Below are positions 6,232 to 60,444 of a stretch of DNA of 64,000 nt, piece by piece. Numbering within the stretch: the stretch's first letter is position 1; every line of letters begins with the position of its first letter. The notes under the pieces were generated by a model. The model had not been told where the DNA came from and ran no database searches. It saw only the letters and a program-made list of their open reading frames with translations. The DNA comes from an uncultured bacterium (GTDB lineage Bacteria; Chloroflexota; UBA5177; JANWHV01): positions 89,230 through 153,229 of the forward strand of contig CAWHAE010000015.1 in assembly GCA_963827235.1 (NCBI GenBank), read 5' to 3'. A program made the translations under genes and the position numbers.

Positions 6232-6494
6232 GATCAACCTCCCGACCACTGGGCCGGCGAGGTCCGGCTCGCCGGCATCGCAGGCAGACGGTGCCACCTA
6301 TCAGCGCCAGTATAGATCGGCTCGGCTCGCTTGTCGCGGTGGGCGCTCTCCGGGACCTCGCCCGGCTTGGGGACATCTGGACCGCCATCAGGGTCTTTCG
6401 GGTATCTGTTCAGGGCTCTGTCTTTGCATAGTGCGTCGGAGTGTTGATGTGTCGTTGACTCCTTTGACGTTTATGAGCACTATTACCTCGTGCA

Positions 6495-7419
6495 CAGGTC
6501 AGCATGGTGCGCCGGCCTGCCGCGTCATAGGTCTCGTGCAGGTGCATACTCACCTGGCCCGCTGCCGGCGTCGCCGTGGCCGGGGTGACCGTGCCGCTGC
6601 TCGTCGCGGTGGCCGTGGGCTCCGCGGCCGGCAGGCTGTCGGCGGCGATCTCCACCACCCGGCCGGCATCGCGCATGGTCAGCCACAGGTTGCCGGCCTC
6701 GTCGAAGGCGATCCCCGCGGGCACGCTGCCCGCCGGCTGGTCCAGCTGGTACTCGCCGATCCTGCCGCCGGCGTCCAGCTGCCCCACCATGCCGGCCTGC
6801 TGCTCCGTGAACCACAGGCTGCCGTCCGGCCCCACGGCCAGCCGGTCTGCTCCCGAGTTGGCCGTGGGCACGTCGATCTCGCAGAAGGTGCCATCGGCGC
6901 TGAGCCGGGCGATCTTGTCGTTCGCATACTCGTTCATGAAGACGCTGCCGTCGGGCGCCCTCGCCACGTAGCCGTTGCCGCCCTCGCCGGCCAGGGAGAC
7001 CGGGTACTGGGTGACCTGGCCGCTGGTCGTGTCCAGCTTGCCCAGGTAGGCCGGCATGTCGCCCGTGTACGCCAGCGCGAACCACAGCACGTGGCCCGCT
7101 CCCAAGGCCAGGCCCATCGGCGACCCGGTGCCGCCGTCCTGCACGGGCAGGGGGTCGTCCGCCAGCAGGGTGCCGCTGGCCTCCACGTGGGCGATCGAGG
7201 AGCTGCCCGTGCTGTTGACGGACAGCCAGAAGGTGCCGTCGCTGTCCTGCGCGATGCCGGCCAGCTCAGCCCAGGTCGTCGATGCTGGGCAGGGAGACGG
7301 CCGTCTCGGTGCCGTCCTGCTGGATGTGGAAGAGCTCGTCGTAGTAGCCGGCCGCCCAGATCGAGCCGTCGGCGCCCAGCACCATGCCTGCCACGATGTC
7401 GTAGCCGGGCGCGGTGAAG
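6495..7419 (-). pseudogene. Tip-less orphan fragment of the main rhs gene (Vgb-like propeller plus first YD repeat)
   Basis: Near-identical to about 29480-30410; frameshift near 7270; homology stops after YDAAGRRT. Confidence 0.85.
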
Positions 7420-7631
7420 CACTCTCTACACGGCAGTGGCAGGCATTGGTGCCGGACACCATCACCCCACTTCCACAGCACAGGCGCCAAGGTTGCAGCA
7501 GGGAGGATGCGCAGTGTTTCAGCGTGCTGTGCCTTGGGGTGCAAGCGCCGAAGTACTTTGGGCCAACACAATGGACCTACAGGCCGGCACAGGGTCTGGC
7601 CGCTGCGTGCAGGGTAAGGAGCGCGAACTAC

Positions 7632-8290: not shown

Positions 8291-8522
8291 CAGGATCGAT
8301 GCTTCGAATGATAGCAGATACGGTGCGAGATGATACAGCGTGCAACAGCCTTCGCTGGGCTGTGCTGGCTGAAAAGTCCATCCGGCTGTGTCAAGTAGCG
8401 CGAAAAGCTGAATGGGAAGTTGCCTGCTCCTTCATGCTGATGGAGGCAATTCGCACCTGCGCCCTGAGCTTTAGGTAGCGCTACTCGGGCGGACGGGCTT
8501 TCCGGCCAGCACAACCGGTGCC

Positions 8523-8599
8523 GCTCAGGGTCACGTATCGGTGATCACCGTGCGGTTGCCTGCCCCGTCGTAGTGGTCCTGCTCGCTGCTGCCATCCGG
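8523..8599 (-). pseudogene. Tiny rhs-core remnant (PDGSSEQDHYDGAGNRTVIT)
   Basis: Minus-strand translation matches the PDGSSEQDAYDAAGNRTVIT segment of the other cores. Confidence 0.7.
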
Positions 8600-8850
8600 T
8601 CCCCGGCGCCTACTATGTGCGCACACGCGATATCGTGATTAGGAAAGGCAAGCACGAGCAGCCTGACGAGGAGTACGTGTGCTCCACGACGCCTACTCGG
8701 GCGTAACGGCCACGCCCGGGCGGCCAATCTGCCCCTCGCCGATTGTCAGGTCCGCGTCGATGTTGGCGCCTGTCTGCCCCTTCTCCAGCGCATACCCTGG
8801 CCGCACGCCTACGGAAATAGGACGTATCCAGGACGGCCGGTCACTCTGGT

Positions 8851-9369
8851 TCACGCCTCGCCTCGCTCCAGAAGCTTCCTCACCGCTACAAAAGGCGGCT
8901 CAGAATCATTGCGCCCTCGACCGCGAAAGCAGTAGTGATAGGCTCGAGACTCAATGTTGCGGCACACAAACTTACCATCAGAAGCAATCCGGTAACTGGC
9001 AAACTGCATAGCGCTGCTTCCTAGAGCATGGGCTATGTCGCCAAACCGTGGTGCCACGCCTTCGGGCATACACCACCCAGGAATGTCCGAATCCGTTCCC
9101 TCATCGGCCTCGATCTCCAGGAACCAGGCGCGTCGAGCCGCACCCTCGCTTGTCGCCCACATCACTCCAGCCACATACGGACCGTCCGTCCCCTCCTCGA
9201 CATCTTGACCCCTAGCTCGAATGGGGGTGACAGCCAAGTATGCGTCAGCGCCAAGCCTGTAGAGAACAGCGCGCGTTCTGCCTCTAATCATGTTGTCGTC
9301 GCGGATCTGGTCAACAACTTCTGCTAAGGGAGTCCAAATCGGCATTGTCAGGATCCTGCCAAGTTCCAT
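8851..9369 (-). CDS. Putative immunity protein for cassette A
   Basis: Begins 13 bp after the toxin stop with an AGGAGG RBS; lower GC; family not recognised. Confidence 0.75.
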   Translation of the reverse strand: MELGRILTMPIWTPLAEVVDQIRDDNMIRGRTRAVLYRLGADAYLAVTPIRARGQDVEEGTDGPYVAGVMWATSEGAARRAWFLEIEADEGTDSDIPGWCMPEGVAPRFGDIAHALGSSAMQFASYRIASDGKFVCRNIESRAYHYCFRGRGRNDSEPPFVAVRKLLERGEA

Positions 9370-9382
9370 GGGACGCTTCCTC

Positions 9383-12300
9383 CTATTTCAGATAGGGATA
9401 GATCTGGCCCGTATAGCTGCCGTTGTTCAGTGCGTTCAGGGCCTTGTCCCGGAGCGTGCCTTGCGGAAGCGCGTTGACTGCAGCTCGCACATCGGGCAGC
9501 CATCTCGCCAACTTTCCTGCGGGCATGGAACTGGCGTAACGACCGCCTGGACCCCGGTATTTCGCATCCCATGCAACAACCTGATCCTTGACCGGGTCGT
9601 ACGTGATGAAGTCAGGCCCTGGAGCGGTCACCGCGCCGGGCGCTTTGACGCCCATCTGCCCAAGATCATTCGTCGCGTACTGGTAGCCTTGGTACTCGCC
9701 AATTGCGGCGTTCTGATGGATTATGTTCGCGCCGCAATAGGCATTATGCACCAGCACGCGTGCCAACCCCACGAAATAGTCGTGGTCGGCGGCCACGGTG
9801 AGCGTGTACACCACAGCGTACCCGGCGTGCTCGTCGATGGCCAGGATCGTGACGTCCTTGCCCGCCTCGGTGCGTAGCGTGTCGCCGACCCGCAGCTTGC
9901 CGGCTTCCACCCAGTCGGCGTGCTTGCTGCCGGGGCCAGTATCCACGAAGAACGGATGGTTGGCGGTCACCTTGATCGTGCTGCCGTCCGACAGGTGCAG
10001 CGCCAGCAGCGGCGAGACCGGTTTGACGATGAGGGCTTGCACCGGTTCCGCTTCTACCTGCTTGGTGGCAGGGTTCTCCGCCAGGACCTTGTCGCCGACC
10101 TTGAGATCCTCGATGGCCACCGAGCCATGGTCCGTCTGCACCAGCGTGCCCGCCGGGAAGCAGGTCTGATTGGTGCCCCTGCACGCGCCGACACAGGGCG
10201 TCTCACTCTGGTCCCCAGTCTCCGACTCGCGACTCAGTCGCTGGAACGCTTCGGTGAGCTTCTGCCTGGAGGCAGCGGTAGCCTCCTTGACAAACGTCCC
10301 GGCAGCGTCGAGGAACTCCCAGTGCCGCATCCCCTGGTCCGCGATGGCACCGATGATACTGCGGAGGCCGGCCACGGTCGGCGAGACAACCTTGCTCCCG
10401 ACGTAGCGCAGGATGGGTCCGCCGACCAGACTGGTGCTGACGACAAGGGCGGCATCAGCGCAACCCAGCGGCCCGGTGTCACGAGCGGTGCATTGCTTGA
10501 CCGGCATGATGAAGAAGTTGTCCGCGATCAGCGCCGGTGCGTCGATACCGCTTGCCCAGAGGAAGGCCAGGATGTGCGAGCCGCCGCTCGACGAGTTGTA
10601 CCACTGCCGTGTACTCGCCTCATTGCCGTGAATAGCCTCCTCAAGCCAGCCGGCTGCCTGGGACAGCTCGTCGGCGCCGTTGAGGATGTCGCCGCTGATC
10701 GCATTCAGCGCGCACAGGGTGGGCGACTTCTCACAGACGGTCTGGTTCAGGTTCTGGGTGAAGACGATGACACCGGGCTGGAGCTGCCAGGCCTGCAAGA
10801 AGGAGCCCGGTGAACGACCGAGCCGGATGTTGACCGCAGGATCACCGTCAAGGGTGGTCAGCGTGGCAAACTGGGTGCCGGCCTTGGGCGGGAAGTCGTC
10901 GCCGGGCCGGAGGTCCGCATGGACGATGCTACCGGAGCAATCCGGGCTCTCCATGTTGACGTAGTCGTAGTTGCACTTCCAGGAGGGCCAGAGCATGCCG
11001 AACACCTTGGCGTCGCGGATGATCTGGTTGACCTTGGCCGTAAAGCCGTTTCGTGGCGCGTCTGCGCGCTCGATGTCCCAGTATTCACCGTCCTTGAGGT
11101 CGACCACGTCGGCCGCGTAGGTCGATGCGCGCAGAGCCGCCTGGGTATGCCAACAAGACTTGCTCGCGTTTTCCTTGAGCACCGGGATCCAGAAGCCATA
11201 CTGGCCGGCATCGCTCAACACGCTGCTGGAGGCGGTGGAGGATGTCCGGCGCCACACGGAGTCCAGGTAGCCTTGCTGGGCCTGGGCGATCTGACTACCG
11301 AAGAAATAGCTTGCCTGGCCACCGATACTGCTTTCCTCGATGTAGTCGCCGTAGTAGTTGCCGGCATCGAGAGGGAACGTCCACCCCTGTCCACTCGGAT
11401 CCCTCACATCCGTGGGCATATTCCCCGCGTACTGGTAGGGGTCGAGCGTCACCGGCACCTGCGGGTCGGCAGGCAGCGGATCCACGCTCTCGAACTGCCC
11501 CTCGCTGCGGGCTGTACTCCCGGGCCCGCATGTCATAGGTGCCGGCCGCCGCGTCGTAGTACTGGCCGGCGAACCCGAAGGGCTGGCTGCCCAGCAGGCC
11601 GGCGAGCAGCGTGGCGCCGCTGCCGGTGGACGTGTCCGGGTTGGGCCGCGCGTTGCCCCAGGCGTCGTAGGCGCCGGCGCCAATGGTGGCGCCGGTGGGG
11701 TCGGTGACCAGCCGCACGCTGCCCAGCAGGTCCGTGCCCAGGGTGGTGATGCGACCGGTGCTCAGCGTGTAGCCCGCTAGCGGTGCCTGGCCGCTGCCCG
11801 GATTGAGGTAGGCGTAGTCGGCACTGCCATCGGAGACCAGGTCGGACATGCCGGCCGCCAGGTCCTGCGCGCAGTTGGAGAGAGTTGGCGTGCCGCTTGA
11901 GGCGTCGTAGCTGCGCAGGCGACCGCCCTGCCCGTCGTAGACGAAGGTGAGGTTGGTGGTCGGGCCGGTGATGGCCACCAGCTCGTTCCGAAGGTCGTAG
12001 GTGTTGGTGATCGTGCCGGTCTGTCCGGTGCTCCCCACCTGGTTGCCCGCGACATCATACGTATAGGCGGTAGGTTCGCCCGGGCCGACGTCCGAGGCCG
12101 TCGAGGCGCTGGTCAGCTCGTCCGCCGCGTCGTAGCTGTTGGCGGTGACGGTGGTGGAGAGGGCATCGGTGGTGCTCAGGGTCACCGTGCTGGTGATGAC
12201 GGTGCGGTTGCCGGCCCCGTCGTACGCGTCCTGCTCGCTGCTGCCGTCCGGGTAGGTGGCCGATCATCAGCTCGCCCGCCGGGTCGTAGGCAAGGCTGGA

Positions 12301-13098
12301 CGTGCCCCAGGAGTCGTCGATACCCGTGCGCTCGCCCGGCCGCGTCCAGGGTGTCCGTCTGGCTGAACAGCACGGTGCCCGAGATGCTCACCGTGGTGTC
12401 GATGGCCCGGCCGGCGCTGTCGTAGCCCCACACCTGGCTGGTGCCGTTCGCCGCCTGCAGCCGCGTCAGGTTGCCCGCCTTGTCGTAGCTCGCGTGACTG
12501 GTGTTGGGCGCCGCTCCCGGCTGGGTCAGCGTGCTCACCCGCCCCGCCGCGTCGTAACTCCACGTCGCGGTCGTGCCCGTCCGGGTAGGTCAGCGTGGTG
12601 CGCCGGCCCGCCGCGTCATACGTCTCGTGCAGGTGCATGGTCACCTGGCCCGCTGCCGGCGTGCCGGCCGTGGGCGTGGCCGTCGTGACCGTGCCGCTGC
12701 TCGTGGCGGTAGCCGTGGGCTCCGCGGCGGCAGGCCGTCGGCGGCGATCTCCACTACGCGGCCGGCGTCGCGCATGGTCAGCCACAGGTTGCCGGCCTCG
12801 TCGAAGGCGATGCCGGTGGGCACGCTGCCCGCCGGCTGGTCCAGCTGGTACTCGCCGATCCTGCCGCCGGCGTCCAGCCGCCCCACCATGCCCGCCTGCT
12901 GCTCCGTGAACCACAGGCTGCCGTTCGGCCCTACGGCCAGCCGGTCCGCCCCCGCGTTGGCCGTGGGCACGTCGATCTCGCCGAACGTGCCATCGGCAGT
13001 GACGCGGGCGATCTTGTCGTTCGCATACTCGTTCATGAAGACTCTGCAGTCGGGCGCCGTCGCCAGGTAGCCGTTGCCGCCCTCGCTGGCCAGGGAGA
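9383..13098 (-). pseudogene. Orphan Rhs cassette A: partial Vgb + Rhs core + DPSG + linker + HINT + PD-(D/E)xK-like nuclease tip
   Basis: Track ORFs 12641-13168, 12182-12538, 11295-12185 and 9383-11683 join by frameshifts; HINT at 9743-10162; tip GPDFITYD...WDAKY. Confidence 0.85.
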
Positions 13099-15808
13099 TG
13101 GAGACCCCTAGCAGTCGGCAGGCTGGCCGCCATTTGATCCAACACCATGGCCGAACGAGCCTGGCCAACTATTGGCGACTATCCCTCCGCGCGCCGGGGA
13201 TCGTGTTGAAGCTCTCTAGCAACTCCACTGGAAAGCCCGAATCCCGCTGAGGATCCCGCGCAAACCGCAGGTAGAACAGATCCCTGCCCCAGTGCTCGAG
13301 CCGTGCCACGTCCTGGGAGGGCACGGTCGTGGGATCACCGCTAGCAAAATGAGATCTGAGAAGTACATTCCCCCAGTACAACCGAGGTATGAACCTGTCC
13401 ATGGTGTATTCACCGAAGCCGTAGTCGTTCCCGGTGCGATCGTGGTACCTCATGTCGATGAGGTCTGACCGGTATAGACCACCCGCCTTCGGCTCTGACC
13501 AACCCACATCGTACTCAATACAACCGTAAATCGCTGACGTCAACTCCGCGAGGGTCCTGGTGTAGCTCTCCAGGGTCTCCATGCGCTGAGCGATCAGCTC
13601 TCTGCGCATAGCTAGCACTACATGGTTGTCCGCGCCTACAGTCGGCTGCTGACTATAAGCGGTCGGTCCGAGCTTGTGGATGCCCGCGTATACTGCCGGC
13701 CAGTCGCTGTCAGAGATAGCCTTATCGAATAGCTCAAAATAGCGAAAGATCCCGCCCTTGATGGCGCCGAGCCAAGCCTCTAGCAGCTTGTCGCTCAACT
13801 GCGCGCTTCGAGGGGCAATATTCCGTGAGCGCGGACGATTGATGCGCCCGCGGCACTTGAGCGGACGACCGGGGATTCGAACAAACCCAGCAAGTGACTC
13901 AACGAGTTCCCGGAACAGGTCGTCCGAGATCACGCTCCTGGGTTCTTCTCTTCCGAACAGCAGGATCGTGGAGTAGCGAGGTTCCTCCATCATGGCAGCA
14001 CCAAGAGGCTCTCGGGTGATTCGGGCGGCGGTGGTATCGGTATGAGCTTCCCAGTTTGCGGGTCCCGAACATATACGTCGCCTGCATTGCGTATGCGAAT
14101 TGTTCTTGTAAGCTGAGGATTCTTGTTGGCTGCCTGACCTGGCGTTGTAACCTCTCGGATCGCAATCACTTGTTTATCCTGTACGACCACGATGTCCAGA
14201 CGTCTGCCCTGCTCGTCCGCTGCATCGATGATCTTCTTCCCTTTTGAATTCAGAATGTATCGCTCCGTGAGTATCTTTGCACCGGGGAAATCTTGTTTCA
14301 CGATTTGCACGGCCCGAGCTTCCCTGGTCATACTAGTCGCCTTGAGTCTCGCTCCCTTGGACAGCGAGGATTTCAGCTCATCGCGCTCCGCCTGACCGAG
14401 GAGTTCGCTTCTGTCGTTGCTCGTGACAATTACGTTGGTCTCAGCTCGCAGGTCCGCTACCACGCCGTCAGCGGTATCCGAGTCAAGCAGCGCACTGTCC
14501 GCGAAGAGGCTTACCTTGCCGGTCGCGGACAACGCGGAAATCACCTTGATCGGTAACGCATTTATGAGCGTGCCGAGCAATGCGCGGCCCTGACACCAGT
14601 GGTCACTACTTGGGCACTCTGACACGCCACCGAACGCCACCATGTCTATGGCGCAGGCGAGCACGGAGACGCCCAGTGGGCAGGCGCTTACGGGAGCCAC
14701 GTTGCCCGGCGTGGGGACTGCGCACGCATTCCCGGCGCCTGGCACCAGCTTGCACACCCGGTAGCCGATGATACCAGGGAGTTGTTGAGAAGCGAGAACC
14801 AGGTATACATCGGACGCCGTGGACACAAGCAACTGCGAAAATGCGCTGAACACAAAGCGCCTGCCGCTGAGTTCATCGCCGGTTGACAGGGGGTAGCTCT
14901 TGCCTCGCTGCAGGCTGACATGCGGTGTTGCCACGCACTCGGTGCCCCGATGCCAGGACAGTCCACGCTGCGCGGCACTGAGACCAAGGAGGTTCATGTC
15001 CAGGCGCGAACCGATGTCGTAGTCGATGTTGACGATGTCGTACATCTCGCCGTAAACGCTGCCTTGATAGGGCATCGGGTCCATGCTCACTAAATCAGCG
15101 TGAGCAGGCCCCACCAGGTGACCTGCGTTGTCCGGCATGGGGAGCGTCACGTCCGCCATGCTGCTGTGGGTCGTGTCATGAGAGAGGAAGTCGGTCTCGA
15201 TACGTTCCTTGATGAGATCCTCGTCCTGCGTGGTAGCACCGCTGTACACGGCCCATCCCTGCCCGCTCGCGTCCGTCACGTCCGTGGGCACGTTCCCCGC
15301 GTACTGGTAGGGGTCGACGGTCACCGGCACCTGCGGGTTGTAGGACTGTGGATCCTCGCTCTCGAACTGCCCCTGCTGCGGGCTGTACTCCCGGGCCCGC
15401 ATGTCATACGTGCCTGCCGCCGCGTCGTAGTACTGGCCGGCGAACCCGAAGGGCTGGCTGCCCTGCAGGCCGGCGAGGAGCGTGGCGCCGCTGCCGGCGG
15501 ACGTGTCCGGGTTGGGCCGCGCGTTGCCCCAGGCGTCGTAGGCGCCGGCACCGATCAGCGCGCCGCTGGGGTCGGTGGCGAGGCGGACGCTGCCCAGGAG
15601 GTCGGTGCCCAGGGTGGTGCTGCGCTGGGTGCTCAGGGTGTAGCCTGCCAGCGGCGCCTGGCCGCTGCCCGGATTCAGGTAGGCGTAGTCTGCACTGCCG
15701 TCGGAGACCAGGTCGGACATGCCGGCCGCCAGGTCCTGCGCATAGTTGGTGAGCACCGGCGTGCCGCTTGACGCGTCGTAGGCGCGCAGGCGGTCGCCCT
15801 GCCCGTCG
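9743..15808 (-). repeat. Left copy of ~6.07-kb inverted duplication (right copy 53143-59217)
   Basis: Identical 274-aa immunity protein and toxin-B tip; linker+HINT nearly identical. Confidence 0.95.
13169..13993 (-). CDS. Putative immunity protein for cassette B (274 aa)
   Basis: ATGA overlap with the toxin stop; identical copy at 54961-55785. Confidence 0.8.
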   Translation of the reverse strand: MMEEPRYSTILLFGREEPRSVISDDLFRELVESLAGFVRIPGRPLKCRGRINRPRSRNIAPRSAQLSDKLLEAWLGAIKGGIFRYFELFDKAISDSDWPAVYAGIHKLGPTAYSQQPTVGADNHVVLAMRRELIAQRMETLESYTRTLAELTSAIYGCIEYDVGWSEPKAGGLYRSDLIDMRYHDRTGNDYGFGEYTMDRFIPRLYWGNVLLRSHFASGDPTTVPSQDVARLEHWGRDLFYLRFARDPQRDSGFPVELLESFNTIPGARRDSRQ

Positions 15809-16352
15809 TAGACGAAGGCGAGGTTGGTGGTCGGGCCGATGATGGCCACCAGCTCGTTCCGCAGGTCGTAGGTGTTGGTGATCGTGCCGGTCTGTCCGGT
15901 GCTCCCCACCTGGTTGCCCGCGACATCATACGTATAGGTGGTAGGTTCGCCCGGGCCGACGTCCGAGGCCGTCGAGGCGCTGGTCAGCTAGTCCGCCGCG
16001 TCGTAGCCGAAGCTGGAGGTGCCCCAGCTATCGTCGATGGCCGTGCGCTCGCCCGCCGCGTCCAGCGTGTCCGTCTGGCTGAAGAGCACGGTGCCCGAGA
16101 TGCTCACCGTGGTGTCGATGGTCCGGCCGGCGCTGTCGTAGCCCCACACCTGGCTGGTGCCGTTGGCTGCCTGCAGCCGCGTCAGGTTGCCTGCCTTGTC
16201 GTAGCCGGCGTGACTGGTGTTGGGCGCCGCCCCCGGCTGGGTCAGCGTGCTCACCTGACCCGCGGCGTCGTAGCTCCACGTCGCCGTGTGCCCGTCCGGG
16301 TAGGTCAGCGTGGTGCGCCGGCCCGCCGCGTCATACGTCTCGTGCAGGTGCA
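13990..16352 (-). pseudogene. Orphan Rhs cassette B with REase-like tip, no HINT
   Basis: Core starts at HLHETYD; amber stop at 15988-15990; DASG cleavage-motif variant; tip E...GRRLDIVVV...EVT...K..Q. Confidence 0.85.
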
Positions 16353-20350: not shown

Positions 20351-21178
20351 TCACTGCTCAGCGCCGCTGCTGGGAAGTCTGAGAGGAAGAATCCGCTTCA
20401 TCACGACCTGCGGAGCTTCCTCGGCCCGGACGGCAGCCTGGGATTCCGGCGCGGGAGCGGCAAACTGAACAAGCGCATGCCTGGCGAAGTTCCGAACTGA
20501 AGGGTCGGCGTCCTGCGCCGCCCTTTGCAGCGCGGCAATGACACCGTCCGACGCAACTCCGGCGTTGCCAAGGGCACCTGCGGCATTTGCACGCACGTCG
20601 CAGAACGGATGGGACAGGGACGCAAGGAGCGCTCCGATCACGCCTGCATCTCGGAACTGCAGCGCGCCGAGCGCCCAGGCGGCTGTCGCCTGTACGTTGG
20701 CGTCCCTATCGGCGAGAGCGGCGAGCAGGGCGTCGCGTGCCTCGCCTGTGCTAAGGCCGAGCCTAGCGATGCTATCCACGACCCAGCCCCGGATGGAAGG
20801 CGACTCGTCGGCAAGCTGCGCGGTCAGGCGATGCAGCACGACTGGATCTCCCTTTCCGATGTCACCAAGCGCTGCAACCGCCGCTTCCCGCACCTCAGGT
20901 TCAGTATCCTCCAGGGCGCCCAGCAATCCTTTGACCGCGCCGGAATCGTGCGATGCCCAAGTGGGCATAGTCAGAGCAGCCAATTCCCGTACGGACGCGT
21001 CGGCGTCGGACAGAGCGTCGAGGTAGGCTGCTGTAGCACGAGTTCTCAGCTGCCCAAGATCGTCTTCCTCACCGTCCGCTAAAGAGCGCAGGCTTGCAAG
21101 CCCCTGGCGTCGTGTGACAGCATCCTCGGCGGCAAGCGCCAGTAATGAGTCGGCGAAACTCAAGATCTGGTCGTCCAT
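20351..21178 (-). CDS. HEAT-repeat protein, putative immunity for cassette D
   Basis: Repeated L.D.D..VR..AA.ALG units; downstream of toxin D. Confidence 0.85.
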   Translation of the reverse strand: MDDQILSFADSLLALAAEDAVTRRQGLASLRSLADGEEDDLGQLRTRATAAYLDALSDADASVRELAALTMPTWASHDSGAVKGLLGALEDTEPEVREAAVAALGDIGKGDPVVLHRLTAQLADESPSIRGWVVDSIARLGLSTGEARDALLAALADRDANVQATAAWALGALQFRDAGVIGALLASLSHPFCDVRANAAGALGNAGVASDGVIAALQRAAQDADPSVRNFARHALVQFAAPAPESQAAVRAEEAPQVVMKRILPLRLPSSGAEQ

Positions 21179-21337: not shown

Positions 21338-23497
21338 TCAATTCGGCATCGGGAGATTGTATGCGATCGTGGTGTACCCACGGCCCGAAGTATCGGTGTT
21401 GACTCCGTCCACGTTGAAGTTGTGGAGGTGGAACCGGACAATCAGCACCGGCTTCCCATTGAGGAAGTGAGTGTGCCGCGCGTCGGGCCTTGGGAAGCTC
21501 TCGTCATGTATGTCCGCGACGATGAGGAAGCCGCTAGCAGCGTATGTCTTCGTGGCCCATGAACTGAAATGCTGCTGCCCGCCGCTCCGGGAATCGTCAT
21601 ACTGGTTGTCGATCTCGACTGAGACCTCTTCGGGTGAATCCGGAAGCCCGATGTAGGCGATACCGAACAGTGCTGACAGGTAGGCACCGGACCAACAGTG
21701 ACTGAACAGGCACCAGGCGCCTCCATGCAGGGCAGGCCAACCCGGGGCGCCTGGGCGGGCAGCAGAGATAATGATGGTGCCCAATTCCACCTGGTTCTGC
21801 CGGCAATTGCAATTAGTCGCGATTGGGTTCTTGCTTAGCGTCGCTGATACGTTATCGTCGGTGAAGATAGTCACGTGCCTGAATATGCCATAAACATCCG
21901 AGTTAACTGAGAATGGCCCTGACCCGGAGGCGTTCGGTCGCGGCTGTGTCAACACGCCTACCAGGTCGGTTCGGCGCGTGACATGCCCCTCAATTTCACT
22001 ATCGGTCATGTAGAAGTTGTTGCCCAGGATACTCTGATCGGCGGCACTGGCCGGCTGGCCACAGACAGCCCTGAAGTAGCCGTAGGGCCTCTGCCAGAAG
22101 CAGCCCTCCCACTTCGCGAACGGGTTGGTCGACGAGGCGCAATTCGCCCTCGTACTGGCATTGACCCACGCCATGGACCCTTGTACCAAGTTGCCGTAGG
22201 CACGCGGGAAGTCGCTCTGCGAAAGGCTCCCATCTGATCGGTACTTCACCTCGACGGCGACGAGATCCATATGCCCCGGCAGACTCCCTCTGTAGGCGAT
22301 GAAGTCGGGACCGCGGGCGCTGTCGCCCTTCGCCAACAACCAGCCCATGCCGACCTGAGGATCGATCGTCCTGTCCCACTGATCAATTCGCCCGGGCTGC
22401 GCCGCACCAAAGTTGGGTCCGGAAGCGATCGAGTATCCGGCCTGCCGGTAAAGCTCTACAGCGCACAGCAGTGCGTCTTGCGATCGAGTAAGGTTGTTGT
22501 CCTCGACCTCTGAGTCGCCTTCAGGCGTGGAAGCCAACCCCGCCGCTGGCATAGATGAGGCAACGATCGACAGGCCGCTTTCGGCAAGCATGTCGCGCTG
22601 CACGATCTTCCCACTCGGATCCGTCGCATCGGTCGGCCTGTCCCCCGCATACCGGTATGGCTCGTTCGTCTGGTCGAGCAGCGGGTCCTCGCTCTCGAAC
22701 TGCCCCTCGCTGGGGCTGTACTCCCGTGCCCGCATGTCGTAGGTGCCGGCCGCCGCGTCGTAGTACTGCCCGGCGAAGCCGAAGGGCTGGCTGCCCTGCA
22801 TGCCGGCGAGCAGCGTGACGCCGCTGCCGGTGGACGTGTCCGGGTTGGCTCGCGCGTTGCCCCAGGCGTCGTAGGCGCCGGCGCCGATGGTAGCGCCGGT
22901 GGGGTCGGTGACCAGGCGCACGCTGCCCAGCAGGTCGGTGCCCAGGGTAGTGCTGCGCTGGGTGCTCAGCGTGTAGCCCGCTAGCGGTGCCTGGCCGCTG
23001 CCCGGGTCGAGGTAGGCGTAGTCGGCGTTGCCGTCCGAGACCAGGTCGGACATGCCGGCCTCCAGGTCCTGCGCGTAGTTGGAGAGAGTTGGCGTGCCGC
23101 TTGACGCGTCGTAGCTGCGCAGGCGGTCGCCCTGGCCGTCGTAGACGAAGGTGAGGTTGGTGGTCGGGCCGATGATGGCCACCAGCTCGTTCCGCAGGTC
23201 GTAGGTATTGGTGATCGTGCCGGTGGGTCCCACGCTGCCCGTCTGGTTGCCCGCGGTATCGTAGCTATAGGTGGTGGGCTCGCCCGGGCCGGCGTCCGAG
23301 GCTGTCGAGGCGCTGGTCAACTCGTCGGCGGCGTCGTAGCTGTTGCTGGTCACCGTGGTGGAGAGGGCATCGGTGGTGGTGAGCGTGACCGTGCTGGTGA
23401 TCACGGTGCGGTTGCCGGCGTCGTCATACTGGTCGACTTCGCTGCTGCCGTCCGGGTAGCCGGCGCTGGTCAGCCCGCCTGCCGGGTCGTAGCTGAA
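21338..23497 (-). pseudogene. Orphan Rhs cassette D (open frame) with PD-(D/E)xK domain plus extra C-terminal region
   Basis: Core homology from YDPAG; DPSG; GPDFIAY...VEVKY...QGS..W; no N-terminal Rhs region. Confidence 0.82.
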
Positions 23498-23732
23498 TCC
23501 AGACTCTACCACGTTATGCTGGCTCAGAGGTAGAACACTACCCGAGCACGCACGCGGACTTCGCCATCAGTATCAACAGTGCCGGAGACCCCTGTTTTCG
23601 CGCTTCTTGGCACCCGCAACGCCCGCGCCACACGCTCGCATCACAAACGTCGCTTGCGCAGGCAGCGTGATCGGAGGACCCACGAAGCCGCCGTATGACC
23701 CGCCTTTGCAGTACCAGTGTCCACTACGCGCC

Positions 23733-26205: not shown

Positions 26206-29200
26206 TCACCGTGTAACGACGATCTTGACTCTCGTTCCATCGGGAAACCTACTCAAGAGACTGCGGATGGTCGCGCCGAGCCCGCGATTGTCCAGACGTT
26301 GTATCGGCCGAATACTGGCTCCCTTCCCGCCCTCAGCAAACATGGCCATGGGAAACTCATCCCGATCCATATTAGGGGTGGTTGCGGTGCCGGCAAGTGA
26401 CTCAGCGCGCCTCGCGGCTGCCCCGGCTCGGTCTATGGTGAGATCAGAGAACTGACCTGCACTGATCGCGTCCTCAATATGGCTCAGTGCCTGGTCATAC
26501 GCCGGATAAGCCTGCTTCGATAGGGTTAGGGTGACAACACCTGTTGACGGGTCGACGTTGACAGGACACGGCCCCGCGTTGTGCACCAGCACCTCGGCCA
26601 ACCCGACGAAGAAGTCGTGGTCGCTGGCGACGGTGAGGGTGTAGACGTGCGCCTCGCCCATGTTCCAGTGTATGCCCAGCACCGTGACGTCGCGCCCGTC
26701 TTCGGTGCGCAGCCGGTCACCTGCCTGCAACTGGCCGGCCTCAACCCAGCCGGGTTTGGTCAGGTCACGGCCGCTGTCCACATAGAACGGATGGTTGCTC
26801 GTCACCTTGAGTGTGCTGCCGTCGGAGAGTTCGAGGGCTAGCAGCGGCTTGATGCCGTCGTCGATCACCGCCAGCACGCGCTCAGCTTCGGGCTTGCCCT
26901 TGGCCGGGTCTTCCGCCAGGATGGTGTCGCCCGCGTGCAGGCTGGCGATAGCCACCAGACCGTGCTGGGTGGCCACACCGGTGTCCGCCGGGAAGCAGGA
27001 GCACGGCAGTTCGCCGGTGGTGCCGCCCTGCGCGGTGCACGTCGTGCCCGAACACGGTTCGGTCAACTGGGCATTGTCGAGCGCCTTGCCCGCTGCCTGC
27101 TCTTCTTGGACAGTGGCGGGCTGCATGTGGCCGGATGGATCCAGCAGTTCCAGGGTTGCCTTGCCATCGTCGAGCATGGTGCCTTGTGTGTGCAGCACCG
27201 CCGTTTCAGCCGCTTCCGCCGCAGCGTCGAAGCCACCGCCCGCCGCCGCACCGGCCGCCAGGCGCAGCAACGGCCCGGCCAGCTCGGGAGCAACGAAGGT
27301 GGCCACCGTGAACATGCGCACCAGCAAGCCCGTGCGTGGGTCGACGGCGACCTGGATGCTGCCCAAGGTCAGCGCGGCGAGCTTGGTGAGACCGGCCGCA
27401 GCCAGGAGGTCGACCTCCACACCACCGGGCAGCCAGGACGGTAGGTGCACGCCTGCCTTCTTGGCCGCGTTGAAGTAGTCGGTGGCCGCTTGCTCGGTCC
27501 AGTCGCCTACCTGGCCGATCGCGCAGGTGAGATTGGTGAGCGCATCGTGGCAGTAGCTAGTGCTGTCCGCGTAGACCAGGACGCCGGGCGCCTGGGGCCA
27601 GAAGGTTAGCGTCTTGCCGTGGTAGGGTGCCGTGAAGGCGGGGTACTCGTCATCCCCGCCGCCATGATAGTCAGACGGCCGGATCTCAGGAGTGTAGGGG
27701 CCGGCGGTTCCCACGAAGGGGATAGCGGCGCTGCCTGCCGGGCCTGGCTTGATGGTGGGGAACTTCCGCACCGTCCACGCGCAGCCACCGCCAACCTTCC
27801 ACAGGCACTGCTGGTCGGTGATCCATGCCACTCCAAACGTCTTGGCGTCGGCAATGAGCGTGTTCACGCCATTGATAACCGAGACCTGCTGTGTCAGCGA
27901 CTTGAAAGACTGAGCATGCTCGATGTCCCAGAGATAGGTCCCGCGGTCGGTGACGGAGATGATGTTCGCGTTCAGGGTCTTGCCGATGCTGGCCTTCGCG
28001 CAGGCCAGGGTGGGCACCGGCTTGGTGAACACGGGTACCCAGAACTCGGTCTCGCTGGCCCGCGCCACGGACCAGGCCGGCGTCTTGAGGGCAGTGGTGC
28101 CCTGGTCAGCAGTCGTGGTGCCGACGGCAGGCGACTGCGCTACTCTTGCCGCCGCGGCGGCCATCGCAGTCTCCTGCGCCGCGCTGACCGCCTCGGAGGG
28201 ATAGAGCACCACAGCGACCGCGCCCTCGATGGCCGACTGCTGCTCATAGTCCTGTGCGGTGGGCAGCGCCCATCCTTTCCCACTCGGGTCCGTCCCGTCC
28301 GTGGGCATGTTGCCGGCGTACTCGTAGGGGTCCAGCGTCACCGGCACCTGCGGATCGGCAGGCAGCGGATCCACGCTCTCGAACTGCCCCTCACTTGGGC
28401 TGTACTCCCGGGCCCGCATGCCATACGTGCCTGCCGCCGCGTCGTAGTACTGCCCCGCGTAGCCGAAGGGCTGGCTGCCCAGGAGGCCGGCCAGCAGGGT
28501 GGCGCCGCTGCCGGTGGACGTGTCCGGGTTGGCTCTGGCCTTGCCCCAGGCGTCGTAGGCGCTAGCCCCGATCGTAGCACCGGTGGGGTCGGTGACCAGC
28601 CGCACGCTGCCCAGCAGGTCGGTGCCCAGGGTGGTGGTGCGCTGGGTGCTCAGGGTGTAGCCTGCCAGCGGTGCCTGGCCGCTGCCCGGATTCAGGTAGG
28701 CGTAGTCGGCGTTGCCGTCCGAGACCAGGTCGGACATGCCGGCCTCCAGGTCCTGCGCGTAGTTGGAGAGGGTTGGGATCGATCCGGAGGCGTCCTCGGC
28801 ACGCAGCCTGTCGCCCTGCCCGTCGTAGACGAAGGTGAGGTTGGTGGTCGGGCCGATGATGGCCACCAGCTCGTTCCGCAGGTCGTAGGTGTTGGTGATC
28901 GTGCCGGTCTGTCCGGTGCTCCCCACCTGGTTGCCCGCGACATCATACGTATAGGTGGTAGGTTCGCCCGGGCCGACGTCCGAGGCCGTCGAGGCGCTGG
29001 TCAACTCGTCCGCCGCGTCGTAGCTGTTGGTGGTCACCGTGGTGGAGAGTGCACCGGTGGTGGTGAGCGTGACCGTGCTGGTGATGACGGTGCGGTTGCC
29101 GGCCGCGTCGTACGCATCCTGCTCGCTGCTGCCGTCCGGGTAGCCGGCATTGGTCAGATCGCCCGCCGGGTCGTAGCCGAAGCTGGAGGTGCCCCAGCTA

Positions 29201-32200
29201 TCGTCGATGGCCGTGCGCTCGCCCGCCGCGTCCAGCGTGTCCGTCTGGCTGAAGAGCACGGTGCCCGAGATGCTCACCGTGGTGTCGATGGTCCGGCCGG
29301 CGCTGTCGTAGCCCCACACCTGGCTGGTGCCGTTGGCCGCCTGCAGCCGCGTCAGCTTGCCTGCCTTGTCGTAGCCGGCGTGACTGGTATTGGGCGCCGC
29401 CCCCGGCTGGGTCAGCGTGCTCACCTGACCCGTCGCGTCGTAACTCCACGTCGCCGTCTTGCCGTCCGGGTAGGTCAGCGTAGTGCGCCGGCCCGCCGCG
29501 TCGTAGGTGTAATGCAGGTGCATGCTCACCTGGCCCGCTGCCGGCGTGCCCGCCGTGGGCGTGGCCGTGGCCGGGGTGACCGTGCCGCAGGTCGTGGCGG
29601 TGGCCGTGGGCTCCGCGGCCGGCAGGCTATCGGCGGCAATCTCCACCACCCGGCCTGCGTCCCGCATGGTCAGCCACAGGTTGCCGGCCTCGTCGAAGGC
29701 GATCCCCGTGGGCACGCTGCCCGCCGGCTGGTCGAGCTGGTACTCGCCGATCCTGCCGCCGGCGTCCAGCCGCCCCACCATGCCCGCCTGCTGCTCCGTG
29801 AACCACAGGCTGCCGTCCGGCGCTATCGCCAGCCGGTCCGCCCCCGCGTTGGCCGTGGGCACGTCGACCTCGCCGAAGGTGCCATCGGCAGTGACGCGGG
29901 CGATCTTGTCGTTCGCATACTCGTTCATGAAGACGGTGCCGTCGGGCGCCGCGACGAGGTAGCCGTTGCCGCCCTCGCCCGCCAGGGAGACCGGGTACTG
30001 GGTGACCTGGCCGCTGGCCGTGTCCAGCTTGCCCAGGTAGGCCGGCATGTCGCCCGTGTACGCCAGCGCGAACCACAGCACGTGGCCCGCTCCCAAGGCC
30101 AGGCCCATCGGCGACCCGGTGTCGCCGTCCTGCACGGGCAGGGGGTCGTCGGCCAGCAGGGTGCCGCTGGGGTCCACGTGCGCGATCGAGGAACTGCCCG
30201 TGCTGTTGACGGACAGCCAGAAGGTGCCGTCGCTGTCCTGCGCGATGCCGGCCAGCTCACCCAGGTCGTCGATGGCGGGCAGGGAGACGACCGTCTCGGT
30301 GCCGTCCTGCTGGATGTGGAAGAGCTCGTCGTAGTAGCCGGCCGCCCAGATGGAGCCGTCGGTGCCCAGCACCATGCCTTCGACGATGTCGTAGCCGGGC
30401 GCGGTGAAGCGGCTGACCGTGCCGTCGGCGGCCACGCGGTCGATCTCGTTGCCGTACTCGCCGTAGGTCCAGGCGTTGCCGTTGTGGTCGACCAGCATGC
30501 CGCGCGGACCGAAGCCGCCGGCCAGCTGGTAGGTGGCCAGGCTGGGCAGCAGCGAGTTCGTGTTCGGCGTGGCCGTCGGCGTCTCGGTCGGCGTGTCGGT
30601 ACTCGTGGGCGTATTGGTATCAGTTGGTGTGTCGGTGCTCGTCGGGGTGTCGGTCGAGGTGTCCGTATCCGCCGGCGTGTCGGTGATGGTCGGCGTATCG
30701 GTCGCCGTATCCGTGTCTGCCGGCGCCGTGGCACTCGTGCCGGTAGTCGCCGTCGGCGTGGAGGTCGGTGCCGATTCGCCCTGGCCTTCCTGGTAGTGCG
30801 CCGCGATCTGGCCCGGCGTCAGTGCATAGCGATAGACGGCCACGCCGGCAAGCTCGCCATGCAGATACGCTCCGCCGTCGGTGAGGTCGCAGGCGCCGAT
30901 CGTGAGCGGACCCACCAGCTCCAGGGCATGGGTCTGCGGCGTATCCTGGTCTACTTGCACGCCGTCCTGGTAGATCGTGCGCGTGGTGCCGTCGTACGTC
31001 GCTACCACGTAATGCCAGCTGCTGCTCATGTCGGAGACACTGTCGTCGTAGAGGTCGTCGTTCCACCAGTAGTTCGTCAGGCTGTTTTCGTTGTTCCCGT
31101 CGGTCGAGAACGCGTTGGTGTCGGAGTCGTTGTTGCCGTAGGGCCCGTAGCCGATGATGCCCTGGCCCGGATAGCCGTCCGGGTCCCCGCCGTTGTTGCC
31201 GTCCGGCGAGAGGTTGACCCAGGCCTCGAGCGTGTACGCATCATTGCCGGACGGCAGCCCGCTCACCTGCGGCACGCTGATGTAGCCGGCGTTGCCGTCG
31301 AACGCCGCCGAGCCGCTCATGCCGGGCGGCGCGGTCGTGGTGAAGGCCGCGGTGTTCTGCAGGGTTCCGTCATAGCCGTTGCCGGTGGCGTCGTGGGCCG
31401 TGGTGCCGTCGCTCTCGTCCAGCGGCCAGTAGGCCACGGCGCCGTCGGCCAGCACCGCCGACTCGTAGGCCGCGGAGCTCGGCGTGGCGGTGCCGGTGGC
31501 TGCCGGCGTGGCGGTGCCGGTGACTGCCGGCGTGGCGGTTGCCGTGGTGCAGGCAGGCTGCGGCGCGGTCAGCACCTCGATGCCGCTCACCAGCGGGTTG
31601 TCCGTCTCCCGCACGAAGCTGACCCGCAACTGGCCAAGCTGGTCCGCGGTCACCGGGAAGCTATCCACCAGCGCCTTGTCCTTGGCTCCCGCCGTGGCAT
31701 AGATGTCGAACTGGTCGAGCACCTGCTCGCCGTTCACGCTCACGCCGAACAGCCGCTGGCCGGCACTGTCCCAGGAGAGCTCGGCGAAGTGCAGCCGCAG
31801 GGTGTAGCTGCCGCCCGGCTGCAGATTGGGGATGGTGTAGGTAAAGGCACCCCAGCGCGCCGTCTGGTAGACCAGCGCCGGCGCCGCGTCGCTCACTCCA
31901 CTGGTGTCGATGGAATCACTCACGCTCTCCACGTCGCCGTCGGCGCGCTCGGCCCTGCTGTCGCCGCTGAAGCCGCCCACGTCGCCACCGCCCACGTTGA
32001 TCGCCGCTACCGTGGTCGGCGTCTCCACCGGCGCGCCCGTGCAGCTCTGCGGCGGGCCGGCCAGCGGGATCACCTCCAGGCCGCTGCTTTCCGCCTCGTC
32101 TAACACCGAGGTGTAGGCGACCGCGATCTGCCCGTTATCGTCGGCCTGCACGCTGAAGGCGCGCACCACCGCCGTGTACGGCATGCCCGCGGCGGCGATG

Positions 32201-42610: not shown

Positions 42611-43875
42611 GGGACTACCTCCTCTGTTACCTCGCTGCGCGCACGCGCCGCTTTCTGCGGCGCCTCGGGCGGTCACGGCTGCCGGCCACGATCGGCCCGC
42701 TCTCCGGGCGGCGGACCGCCATCATGCCGGTCATGGATGAGCTGGTTCTCTGGCTGGTCCGCCGGCGCTCTGTGCCGGCGAGCGCGCGATGTGAGGGACG
42801 CGGACTCGGCGCGCTGGATGACTGCCTCGCCTGCGCGCCGTGCAGCACTGTCCCCGGCGTGTGGCTGCCTGCGCCCGGTGACGAGATGCGCAGCCGGCTG
42901 CGGGGAGAGCTACCGGCGGAGCCCGAAACCTGTGCGGACCCTGGCGGTGCGGTCGCAGAACCCCGCGCCTCGAGCGCACGCATCTTGCGGGCAAGGCGTG
43001 CCTGGCTACCGGCCCAGGCCGCGATCGGCTGCCTGCTCATAGCGCACATACCCCCACCACTGCGCGTCCAATGCGCGCGACGAGTGGCCGGCAAGCCACG
43101 AGCAGCGCCCTTCCCTGCGAGCGCGCGGCTGAACCGGCGACTCGACCTGCGTCGCGCTGTTCCGACTGAGCGGTCTCAAGGCAGCACGACAAGCGTGCAC
43201 GGTTGCACGAAATGCCGCAATGCTACAGAGGCGATGCGTCGCGGTCGGGCAAATCAAAACGACGCTTCCGGCACGCATCATAGTCCCGAGCGGCCCCGGC
43301 TGTCAAGCATCTCCCTCCGGATATCTTCGCATCTCATTCCGTCTCCCTCTGCCGGGTGGCGGGCACCGTGTGGGGATGCAGTATGACGAGCTCCACAACA
43401 ATAACTGTTTCAATTCGTTATTCGACGAATAAAGGGGGTTCTGCCGCGGCGCCACATTGGCGGGTCGATCGGTGGGACCTGCCCCCGCCGGCCGTGATAC
43501 GCCGCCGTAGACCGACCCACCAGCGTCGGCGAAGACATCGCGTGCACATGCCAGTCTCCGTCTGTATCCTATACATAACGTTCTATTTGGCCGCCGTGGC
43601 GCGGCAGATACTGGACACGCGGGCAGGTCTGCCGGTACCATGCCGCCGGTGCCGATGTCGCCCGTGCGCAGTGAGCCGGACGGCCCGGCATCGTGCGGGT
43701 CGCCGGGCCTGCGTTCGGCGGTCTGCTCGGGCCAGGGCGGGAATAGCGGGATCGGACTGAAGCTCGCAGTGCACGGGCCACCCGGTGTACGGGCATGCCC
43801 GGCACAGTGGCGCCGGCTTCGGCTGCGACGCGCGCGCATTCCACCCTGGCAGTGCTCTAGTGTGAGGATCTCCCC

Positions 43876-53135: not shown

Positions 53136-53142
53136 TCGTCCC

Positions 53143-55785: not shown

Positions 55786-55855
55786 TTGGCCAGGCTCGTT
55801 CGGCCATGGTGTTGGATCAAATGGCGGCCAGCCTGCCGACTGCTAGGGGTCTCCA

Positions 55856-60167: not shown

Positions 60168-60444
60168 AGGGCCGTAGCTCCCACAGGCCGCGAGCACCTT
60201 GCCGACGAACTGGAGAACGCTGTAGGACCGGAGTGCCCACGTCGACAATTGATAGGTTTGCCCCTTGCGTCCTGCATTGATGGTCGCCCGACAGAGGCGT
60301 CAACCATCACTGGGGCATCGTAGTAACACAGACGAATTCATGGCTGAGACCGCTCAAGGCCGAATCAAGACGTTGTTCAGGTCGAGGGAGGGCAGCGCCT
60401 ATTGGGCATCGCAAGGTGGGTGACTATGCGATATACCTGCCCCG

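Follow-up and report, generated by a model that had tools for sequence, protein, structure and literature searches.

Two silent toxin cassettes of an Rhs locus, A and F, carry near-identical HINT domains followed by different nuclease-type tips, each with its own presumed immunity gene. The arrangement probably reflects an orphan-cassette Rhs locus in which about 6 kb was recently copied by homologous recombination, with one end of the copied tract inside the HINT coding sequence. The locus was analysed in a window of 64,000 nucleotides from an uncultured member of the Chloroflexota (contig CAWHAE010000015.1, positions 89,230 to 153,229); all coordinates below refer to this window.

9383-11683, minus strand: cassette A
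56905-59589, plus strand: cassette F

Organisation of the Rhs locus

Alongside its main gene, this Rhs/YD polymorphic-toxin locus has spare (orphan) cassettes. RHS/YD repeats (PF05593) are represented by 37 stretches in 33602-42676 and by three in 26206-33807, and the N-terminus of the Rhs protein is signal-peptide-like when judged by eye. Besides the main gene, there are seven core-end fragments within the window and two on contig C12. The window ends at the contig end, within the array, and the toxin locus resumes at the start of contig C12. All eight cassettes (8/8) have the core-end motif Y-x-Y-A...D[PA]SG and diverge beyond it. A match to PF03527 (18 bits) is below the cut-off of 27.9. 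Four of the eight cassettes have a second boundary at a HINT domain. Some orphan cassettes are inverted relative to the main Rhs gene. GC3 is 0.88 in the main gene, 0.62 in linker plus HINT, and 0.58-0.72 across linker, tips and partners.

The shared linker and HINT block and its downstream edge

The segments compared between cassettes A and F are as follows.

10163-11379, minus strand: linker of A, 405 aa, between DPSGQGW and HINT
57581-58797, plus strand: linker of F
9740-10162, minus strand: PT-HINT of A (CFPAG Cys1 at 10162-10160, His-Asn at 9748-9743, +1 Ala at 9742-9740)
58798-59220, plus strand: PT-HINT of F (PF07591, E=1.3e-20)
9740-9776, minus strand: transition zone, comprising the final 37 nt of HINT A, compared with 59184-59220 of F

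A sequence-only reading had proposed that A and F share about 1.6 kb of linker plus HINT with only a few substitutions (T/A, E/Q, D/A). The block was recovered at the positions given there: DNA in 11379-9777 has 5 differences over about 1604 positions, and the proteins downstream of DPSGQGW are 99.5% identical over 549 residues. Three differences are synonymous (11126, 11087 and 9986), and two are not (10639, resulting in E/Q, and 10212, resulting in D/A). The T/A change is at 11380, right after DPSGQGW, and marks the upstream edge of the near-identical block.

The same reading placed the tip swap exactly at HN, which holds for the protein only. The Asn codon of HN is at 9745-9743 in A and 59215-59217 in F, the +1 Ala codon is at 9742-9740 and 59218-59220, and homology is gone from the next codon (9739 in A, 59221 in F). 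In the DNA, however, 5 differences (9776, 9758, 9746, 9743 and 9740), all of them third-position and synonymous, are present in the final 37 nt of HINT. This is a density of 5/37 compared to 5/1604 upstream (Fisher p = 1e-6). The DNA breakpoint is thus upstream of HN by at least 37 nt. Alignment of A with F maps the tract end to the 3' part of HINT, with near-identity stopping somewhere in 9986-9776. The five synonymous differences suggest that each tip came with its own HINT 3' end, which would indicate homologous recombination inside HINT.

Divergence was said to be complete past HN-Ala. No BLASTP match between the tips was found at E<=10, but a Cys-Gly at +3/+4 past HN is common to both. 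The partners (172 and 191 aa) match each other only at E>1, so that the partners are unrelated to each other, as had been stated.

It could be argued that HINT homology is irrelevant to this junction, and that an inverted 6-kb duplication was followed by replacement of tip and immunity gene through illegitimate insertion at the domain border. The border in the protein is indeed sharp at HN-Ala, and GC3 of tips and partners is below that of the main gene, as for imported DNA. We nevertheless consider this improbable. Since the final 37 nt of HINT contain five synonymous differences, and the preceding 1604 nt five differences, the incoming or retained segment would have included HINT-coding sequence. 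In addition, the closest relative of either tip has a PT-HINT of its own.

HINT domains of the genome

The genome has only four HINT copies. In addition to those of A and F, these are:

26575-26976, minus strand: PT-HINT of the main Rhs gene (26206-33807), with a NucA/NucB-DNase-like tip behind it
62357-62758, plus strand: PT-HINT of cassette G (60416-63139), with an AHH nuclease tip behind it

All four exceed the Pfam gathering score of PF07591 (27.7 bits), with 74.8 bits for A, 74.5 for F, 68.1 for the main gene and 59.9 for G. The match of HINT A (E=1e-20) spans model positions 1-137 of 137, as does that of F. PF07591 (PT-HINT) is the known bacterial intein-like, autoproteolytic domain found immediately ahead of the tips of polymorphic toxins. 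The catalytic residues of HINT domains are an N-terminal Cys, a block B Thr-x-x-His and a C-terminal His-Asn. In five aligned HINTs, C1, H69-P70 (block B), H139 and N140 are invariant; block B is TANH in A and F, with T replaced by Q in G. The 119-126 residues that follow HN differ in all four proteins (A, F, G and the main gene).

The HINTs of the main gene and of G each have 62% protein sequence identity to the A/F HINT. DNA identity is only about 46-83% per 30-nt window, and the longest exact runs shared with A/F are about 11-14 nt, which is not long enough for homologous exchange with A/F to be efficient. Of all HINT DNA, the 3' block is best conserved across the four copies (73-83%, compared to 43-70% elsewhere). 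Its last 23 codons were analysed for synonymous-site conservation, and none was found beyond that of the protein. Among identical residues, the codons are identical in 13/20 cases in the last 23 codons compared to 38/67 in the rest for A and the main gene, in 10/19 compared to 29/68 for A and G, and in 10/19 compared to 28/65 for the main gene and G. Since synonymous-site conservation does not exceed the protein level, the HINT "anchor" seems to follow simply from the conservation of a protein motif.

These data bear on the proposal that HINT is a second recombination anchor nested inside the Rhs-core level. Two nested junctions do exist (at 11380 and in the 3' part of HINT), and a conversion or recombination tract ends in HINT. 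The stronger version, in which the HINT 3' end is a dedicated second-tier anchor, conserved at the DNA level for tip shuffling independent of linkers, is in our view very unlikely. The single tract end in the HINT 3' end and the high DNA conservation of the 3' block would be in line with it, as would the similar role that has been proposed for BIL in the MafB cassettes (PMC4287609). Against it, the last 23 codons do not clearly exceed the others in codon identity, the main gene and G share only short exact runs with A/F, and only one event is seen among only four HINT copies.

A 6-kb inverted repeat with mosaic core fragments

The linker and HINT block of 1.6 kb is the outer end of an inverted repeat of 6.08 kb.

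9747-15815: left copy, with cassette B, a 274-aa gene, and the core fragment, linker and HINT of A
53136-59213: right copy, with cassette E, a 274-aa gene, and the core fragment, linker and HINT of F
11380-12660, minus strand: Rhs core fragment of A, the stretch aligned with other core fragments
56905-57580, plus strand: Rhs core end of F, in frame with its linker and terminating in YEYAGNMPTDVTDPSGQGW

The copies (9747-15815 and 59213-53136) are 96.8% identical over 6085 columns (blastn). They are 37 kb apart, in inverted order, and flank unique housekeeping genes. Identity varies along the repeat: it is 100% at 15166-13166, 87-96% in the core fragments and about 99.7% at 11380-9777.

The core fragments of A and F differ in 94 substitution columns. 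For 53 of these, both alleles occur in other paralogues, in linked blocks, while 33 columns are private to A and 8 to F. The core fragments are thus a gene-conversion mosaic, a patchwork of paralogue alleles. The linked blocks with both alleles in other copies (53/94) show that recombination among cassettes is ongoing.

The similarity of the cassette A core to the main-gene core extends to about 13098. This core is out of frame with its linker, having an extra base at 11507/11508, in a context that is not homopolymeric, compared to F and the other paralogues. A frameshift near 33.6 kb splits the large Rhs gene in two. Given these two frame disruptions, the locus may have undergone partial decay, or there may be indel errors in the assembly.

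The question arises if A and F could be an artefact of assembly or strain mixture, being allelic copies from two strains or the result of a mis-join in the repeat. The bin has an estimated contamination of 9% and consists of 21 contigs, and the contig ends inside an array that continues at the start of contig C12. Public sequencing data match only in part: four runs were found, none of them containing more than 0.23 of the sampled words. Contigs from these runs over 8500-12300 are scattered, mostly of about 150 nt and of low depth, which is too sparse to test the junction, and position 9747 is bridged by neither reads nor contigs. Some of the pieces are 100% identical to the window (e.g. 9081-9351, 9908-10058 and 10158-10308). 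Still, an artefact has very little probability in our estimate. The differences are structured and paralogue-like, with cores that are 87-96% identical and share alleles with other cassettes. The copies are far apart, inverted and placed around unique genes. Even after a mis-join within the common 1.6-kb block, both tips would be beside this HINT, and contigs of megabase scale suggest long reads.

Toxin tips, their partners and the linker

8851-9369, minus strand: 172-aa partner of tip A, starting 13 nt past the tip A stop codon
9383-9739, minus strand: tip A, toxin domain of about 118-120 aa (GPDF...WDAKY), with a PD-DxK-looking motif
59221-59589, plus strand: tip F, toxin domain of 124 aa, with a predicted restriction-endonuclease-like fold
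59592-60167, plus strand: 191-aa partner of tip F, presumed immunity gene

Tip A is a single-copy sequence in this genome. A word-index search returned two proteins, tip A itself and P0004, which is 67% identical to tip A. Alignment pattern scans of genome and metagenome contigs found no relatives of tip A. Scans restricted to its C-terminal 78 aa turned up two matches. One, from a metagenome, is truncated and lacks a usable ORF (L005). The other, on a Niveispirillum contig (L006), is in an unrelated frame and was judged spurious. The nearest Protein Atlas cluster to tip A is "restriction endonuclease" (score 0.94), with Mrr_cat on 40% of its members. There is no Pfam match at E<=10. The AF2 model (pLDDT 74) has Hjc resolvases as best Foldseek matches, which are non-significant (E 0.48-1.8), so that a PD-(D/E)xK-like fold can be only weakly assigned to tip A. 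Its 172-aa partner has an AGGAGG 8 nt upstream of the ATG, is single-copy in the genome and has no Pfam match. It is a presumed immunity gene because of its position.

Tip F has many relatives. A word-index search found none among longer proteins, and an exhaustive search found 274 at E<=1e-3. In nearly all of the 150 relatives listed (of these 274), the match is at the C-terminal end. The domain is without a Pfam match, toxin families included, in all 140 relatives that were scanned. A PT-HINT is upstream in 16 of these 140, while others have the domain directly behind an Rhs DPxG or elsewhere. The AF2 model of tip F (pLDDT 90.2) predicts an alpha-beta core with a restriction-endonuclease-like fold. 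Its top Foldseek matches in the PDB are all PD-(D/E)xK nucleases (Cas4-family ACE1, Hjc, a splicing endonuclease and the AddB/AdnA nuclease), at modest scores (best E 8.9e-4; TM 0.38-0.47, about 0.42). Near-invariant in the family are E, RRPD, NVG(K/R) and RE. The 191-aa partner has no Pfam match. In genome G278, a homologous 186-aa gene (27% over 91 aa, pairwise E=3e-8) directly follows an Rhs toxin of the tip F family. From this gene order, tip F and its 191-aa partner are presumed to be a toxin-immunity pair.

The linker of A has no Pfam match either. It is about 32% identical to the post-DPSG region of the main gene, in an alignment that also spans HINT. No relatives of the A/F linker were found in four genus mates and 400 further genomes of the phylum, and a word search in the protein index, covering lengths of 394-1255 aa, returned none.

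Relatives of both tips occur with other linkers. P0004 and P0005, the nearest relative of tip F, both have the tip directly behind a PT-HINT with the same HN boundary, and their linkers are unrelated to that of A/F. This fits with both ancestral cassettes having had a HINT. The proposed combinatorial diversity of core, linker and tip is partly borne out: the tip F family is found behind either PT-HINT or the Rhs DPxG, but only one event is seen in the genome analysed here.

A model for the origin of cassettes A and F

In the explanation that we favour, and consider likely, recent homologous recombination or gene conversion would have copied about 6 kb between oppositely oriented cassette arrays. 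This copying would account for the near-identity of linker and HINT in A and F. One end of the tract would be in an Rhs core fragment, the other in the final 40-250 nt of the HINT coding sequence, which is the last stretch still homologous between A and F. Each cassette would have retained its own last HINT codons, tip and immunity gene. The event may have homogenised the upstream region or replaced a tip; either direction is compatible. HINT would thus be the boundary as the last conserved protein module before a hypervariable tip, and nothing suggests a dedicated DNA site. When a tract stops inside this module, tip and immunity gene stay together.

The core fragments within the repeat are only 87-96% identical, which counts against a single recent event alone. 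A single recent event would require later conversions from other paralogues.

As for function, the Rhs aspartyl autoprotease would cleave at DPSG after export, HINT would then release the toxin as the Asn of its C-terminal His-Asn cyclises, and the immunity protein would shield the producer.

We may also speculate about a two-tier system, in which Rhs-core homology swaps linker-HINT-tip modules, while HINT homology swaps tip plus immunity gene. Exchange with those orphan arrays that are in the opposite orientation to the large Rhs gene would then proceed by reversible inversion, without loss of DNA. We regard this extension as rather unlikely.

A and F are a clean, datable within-genome example of polymorphic-toxin rebuilding. 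Their analysis brings out a widespread C-terminal nuclease-like toxin family that lacks a Pfam model (274 representatives) and a pre-HINT linker of 405 aa for which no relatives were detected outside of the genome. The current understanding of Rhs/HINT toxins is unchanged.

Comparison with known systems

In Enterobacteria, arrays of core fragment, tip and immunity gene are found downstream of full-length rhs genes, and recombination occurs in the conserved core. The classical boundary in these Rhs proteins is the PxxxxDPxGL motif alone. The locus described here differs in having a second boundary at HINT (four of eight cassettes) and in that some orphans are inverted relative to the main gene.

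PT-HINT toxins were described by Zhang et al. 2012 (PMC3482391), in an account that has HINT adjoining the toxin upstream and predicts that it releases the toxin. Toxin tips are described there as being replaced by recombination with toxin-immunity cassettes. The position of HINT directly before a variable toxin, the association with RHS repeats and the cassette exchange are the same here. In contrast to what is described in that account, HINT is about 400 aa past the Rhs DPxG core end, the linker has no detected relatives outside of the genome, and two near-identical HINT copies with different tips are found in one genome.

In the MafB toxins of Neisseria (2015, PMC4287609), the spare CT cassettes are described as beginning with BIL-coding sequence, a possible region of variation. 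BIL/HINT between constant and variable regions and an immunity gene after each cassette are common to both systems. The carrier there is MafB (DUF1020) and not Rhs, and the cassettes start within BIL, whereas those described here add an Rhs core fragment and a linker, resulting in two nested homology regions.

In class I CdiA of Pseudomonas, which has BIL with the pre-toxin motif WVHN (Mercy et al. 2016, PMC4725963), the variable CT is delimited by an HN-ending BIL/PT-HINT, as is the case here. According to that description, BIL/PT-HINT plays the delimiting role that VENN has in other CdiA, and a BIL domain of a P. syringae CdiA is reported to be autoproteolytically active. There, a type V two-partner secretion protein acts as the carrier, and no orphan arrays are reported in the part of the paper that deals with this boundary.

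The idea of a HINT boundary, and of HINT as a possible region of recombination, is thus not new, having been put forward in the accounts of MafB (PMC4287609) and of CdiA (PMC4725963). Toxin swapping at HINT is an already described design, and cassettes A and F are a further example of it.

The Rhs locus and its cassettes

The large Rhs/YD locus of the window is on the minus strand, and seven further fragments (cassettes A to G) also carry the Rhs core end (Y-x-Y-A...D[PA]SG). The main features are the following.

33602-42676, minus strand: ORF (3024 aa) with a signal-peptide-like start, DUF6531, 37 RHS-repeat stretches and Malectin
26206-33807, minus strand: ORF (2533 aa) with four Malectin domains, Laminin_G_3, an NHL/Vgb-lyase-like propeller, RHS repeats, PT-HINT and a weak NucA/NucB match
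Below the main gene, minus strand: cassettes A, B, C and D
Past ~10 kb of housekeeping genes (43-53 kb), plus strand: cassettes E, F and G

The two ORFs overlap at 33602-33807 (minus strand). They look like a single Rhs gene of ~5,500 aa (the main gene) with a frameshift within a Malectin domain near 33.6 kb; the gene may truly be a pseudogene, or the assembly may have an indel. The cassettes extend 420-690 residues beyond the DPSG motif. A PT-HINT domain is present in four of the genes (A, F, G and the main gene), 119-126 residues from the C-terminus. Two Rhs remnants are found downstream of A: a 351-aa propeller fragment (6410-7465, minus strand; DNA 92.6% identical to main gene 29472-30410) and 85 nt of core sequence (8516-8599). 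A HEAT-repeat protein (275 aa; 20351-21178, minus strand) is encoded between cassettes D and C and may be of the immunity type.

The genome (7.98 Mb, 21 contigs) has an estimated completeness of 95.9% and a contamination of 9%, and a strain mixture may be present in the bin. The window (G+C 66%) is the final 64 kb of a 153-kb contig. Its end (64000) is the contig end and lies inside the cassette array, which seems to carry on to another contig, C12; two more core ends are found at the start of C12 (254-727 and 5926-6405; protein identity 84-87%). A second, distant Rhs array on contig C8 has ~9 core ends (31-36% identity). None of the public runs searched provided reads that bridge the junctions of A and F.

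Cassettes A and F share linker and HINT but not their tips

The sequence-only reading had noticed that A (9383-11683, minus strand) and F (56905-59589, plus strand) share their linker and HINT. This holds, with 99.5% identity over the 549 residues after DPSGQGW. Two amino-acid changes (E/Q at 10639, D/A at 10212) and three synonymous differences (11126, 11087, 9986) occur in the shared block, and a T/A change (11380) marks its upstream edge. The HINT domain aligns with the full length of PF07591 (Pretoxin HINT) and retains Cys1, the His of block B and the His-Asn at its end. Both proteins end this block with VLVHN-A and are unalignable thereafter, except for a common Cys-Gly at +3/+4. A Cys within 2-6 residues past the His-Asn is frequent (A, F, the main gene, several relatives of tip F) but not universal. 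The tips, as well as the presumed immunity genes next to them (partners), are unrelated by BLASTP and single-copy in the genome.

It had also been claimed that the exchange occurred exactly at the His-Asn. This is correct for the protein but not for the DNA, where the breakpoint maps further upstream; near-identity is lost at some point from 9986 to 9776. Five differences, all at synonymous third positions, fall in the 37 nt that end HINT, as compared to five in the 1604 nt before them (Fisher p = 1e-6). Thus, the last dozen HINT codons belong with the tip, in a different version for A and F. This is the signature of homologous exchange inside HINT and not of insertion at the domain border.

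The linker has no Pfam match, and relatives outside this genome were found neither in four genus mates and 400 other genomes of the phylum nor in a protein index searched over the 394-1255 aa range. It is distantly related to the linker of the main gene; a second linker type is common to B/E, C and G. Linker, tips and partners have a GC3 of 0.58-0.72, compared to 0.88 for the main gene.

The shared block is the end of an inverted repeat

An inverted repeat of 6.08 kb (9747-15815 versus 59213-53136, 96.8% identical) has the 1.6 kb shared by A and F at its outer end. Identity along this repeat is a mosaic.

13166-15166 and 53788-55788: 2 kb, 100% identical, with the tip of B (equal to that of E) and a downstream gene (274 aa, no Pfam match)
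Flanking these 2 kb: two Rhs core fragments, 87-96% identical
Linker and HINT: ~99.7% identical

Among 94 substitution columns between the cores of A and F, both alleles occur in other paralogues in 53; the A allele is unique to A in 33, and the F allele is unique to F in 8. The alleles in common with other paralogues form linked blocks (for instance, at 12075-12027, A agrees with the main gene, G and B, and F with C and D), which indicates that the core fragments still exchange sequence. This explains why they are less alike than linker and HINT, which lack a close third copy: the genome has only four HINT copies, of which the two outside A and F share 62% protein identity with those of A and F. 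Compared with F and the other paralogues, cassette A contains one additional base (11507/11508), not in a homopolymer context, so that its core fragment is out of frame with the linker.

HINT had further been proposed as a second recombination anchor within the Rhs-core level. Codon identity among identical residues gave no sign that the HINT 3' block is conserved in its DNA beyond what the protein requires (3' block versus rest: A and main gene, 13/20 versus 38/67; A and G, 10/19 versus 29/68; main gene and G, 10/19 versus 28/65). The apparent anchor is therefore read as a by-product of protein conservation. In sum, the observation stands, but its interpretation does so only in part.

Tips and partners in other genomes

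Relatives of both tips were found behind different linkers in other genomes.

(a) Tip A has one relative, P0004 (67% identical). Its N-terminal part is unrelated, but it has a PT-HINT (61% identical) and the same HN-AYCG junction. A PD...DAK motif, an Atlas Mrr_cat-type cluster (score 0.94) and non-significant Hjc matches suggest, but do not establish, a restriction-endonuclease-like nuclease. Cassette D (21338-23512), which lacks HINT, has a similar motif after DPSG (GPDFIAY...VAVEVKY).

(b) Tip F (59221-59589) has 274 relatives (exhaustive search, E<=1e-3). The match occupies the C-terminus in nearly all of the best 150, which range from 76 to 6156 aa. Of these, 140 (up to 1100 aa) were scanned against Pfam and ten longer ones excluded; PT-HINT was detected in 16, RHS_repeat in 11, RHS in 9 and DUF4280 in 1, but in none was the toxin domain covered by a Pfam family. 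On inspection, junctions are of three kinds: at HN, directly behind DPxGL, and others. The nearest relative, P0005 (57% identical over HINT and tip), differs in its linker and has Rhs DPTGL at its start. Family motifs (tip F and P0005-P0154) are KRGPK...PHN, E, RRPD, NVG(K/R)T and RE. In the PDB, the AlphaFold model of tip F (pLDDT 90.2) matches PD-(D/E)xK nucleases only (Cas4-family ACE1, Hjc, splicing endonucleases, AddB/AdnA), with modest scores (best E 8.9e-4, TM ~0.42). The family has no Pfam model and a restriction-endonuclease-like predicted fold, and might be set up as a toxin family of its own. The C-terminus of B/E (B 13990-15909), which lacks HINT, has a similar motif (GRRLDIVVV...AIREVT).

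(c) The partner of F is probably a cognate immunity gene that travels with its tip. The best evidence is gene order in another genome (G278), where a family member without HINT is found ~70 residues after an Rhs DPTG motif, and the following gene is homologous to the partner of F (27% over 91 aa, E=3e-8).

Proposed mechanism

Architecture, module borders, recombination tract and tract end are directly observed. From family knowledge, the toxin protein would be exported via its N-terminal signal and cleaved at DPSG by the Rhs autoprotease. HINT would free the tip through Asn cyclisation; splicing is not expected because the +1 residue is Ala. The tip would then degrade nucleic acid of the target cell, the producer being protected by the partner. 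The exchange was probably a gene-conversion or recombination tract between the two inverted arrays, in either direction. Of its two ends, one lies in an Rhs core fragment and the other in the 3' part of HINT, the stretch where homology ends before the unrelated tips.

Compared to the main gene, E, F and G have the opposite orientation, with the housekeeping genes (43-53 kb) in between. The main core (28267-29990, minus strand) and the F core (55856-57582, plus strand) are 94% identical. Recombination between them would invert ~27 kb, joining the main gene to the linker, HINT and tip of F.

Comparison with known systems

Two nested junctions (DPxG and HN) in Rhs orphan arrays are not described in the available passages of PMC4725963, PMC6336857 and PMC4287609. 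Related arrangements are found in excerpts from three studies. Zhang et al. 2012 (PMC3482391) describe toxins immediately preceded by HINT, and tips replaced by toxin-immunity cassettes. In Pseudomonas CdiA, the class I pre-toxin boundary is a PT-HINT/BIL domain with a WVHN motif, and self-cleavage was reported for one such BIL domain (Mercy et al. 2016, PMC4725963). In class 1 MafB, a BIL domain separates the constant and variable parts, and the spare mafB-CT cassettes begin with BIL-coding sequence, which is marked as possibly involved in variation (Jamet et al. 2015, PMC4287609).
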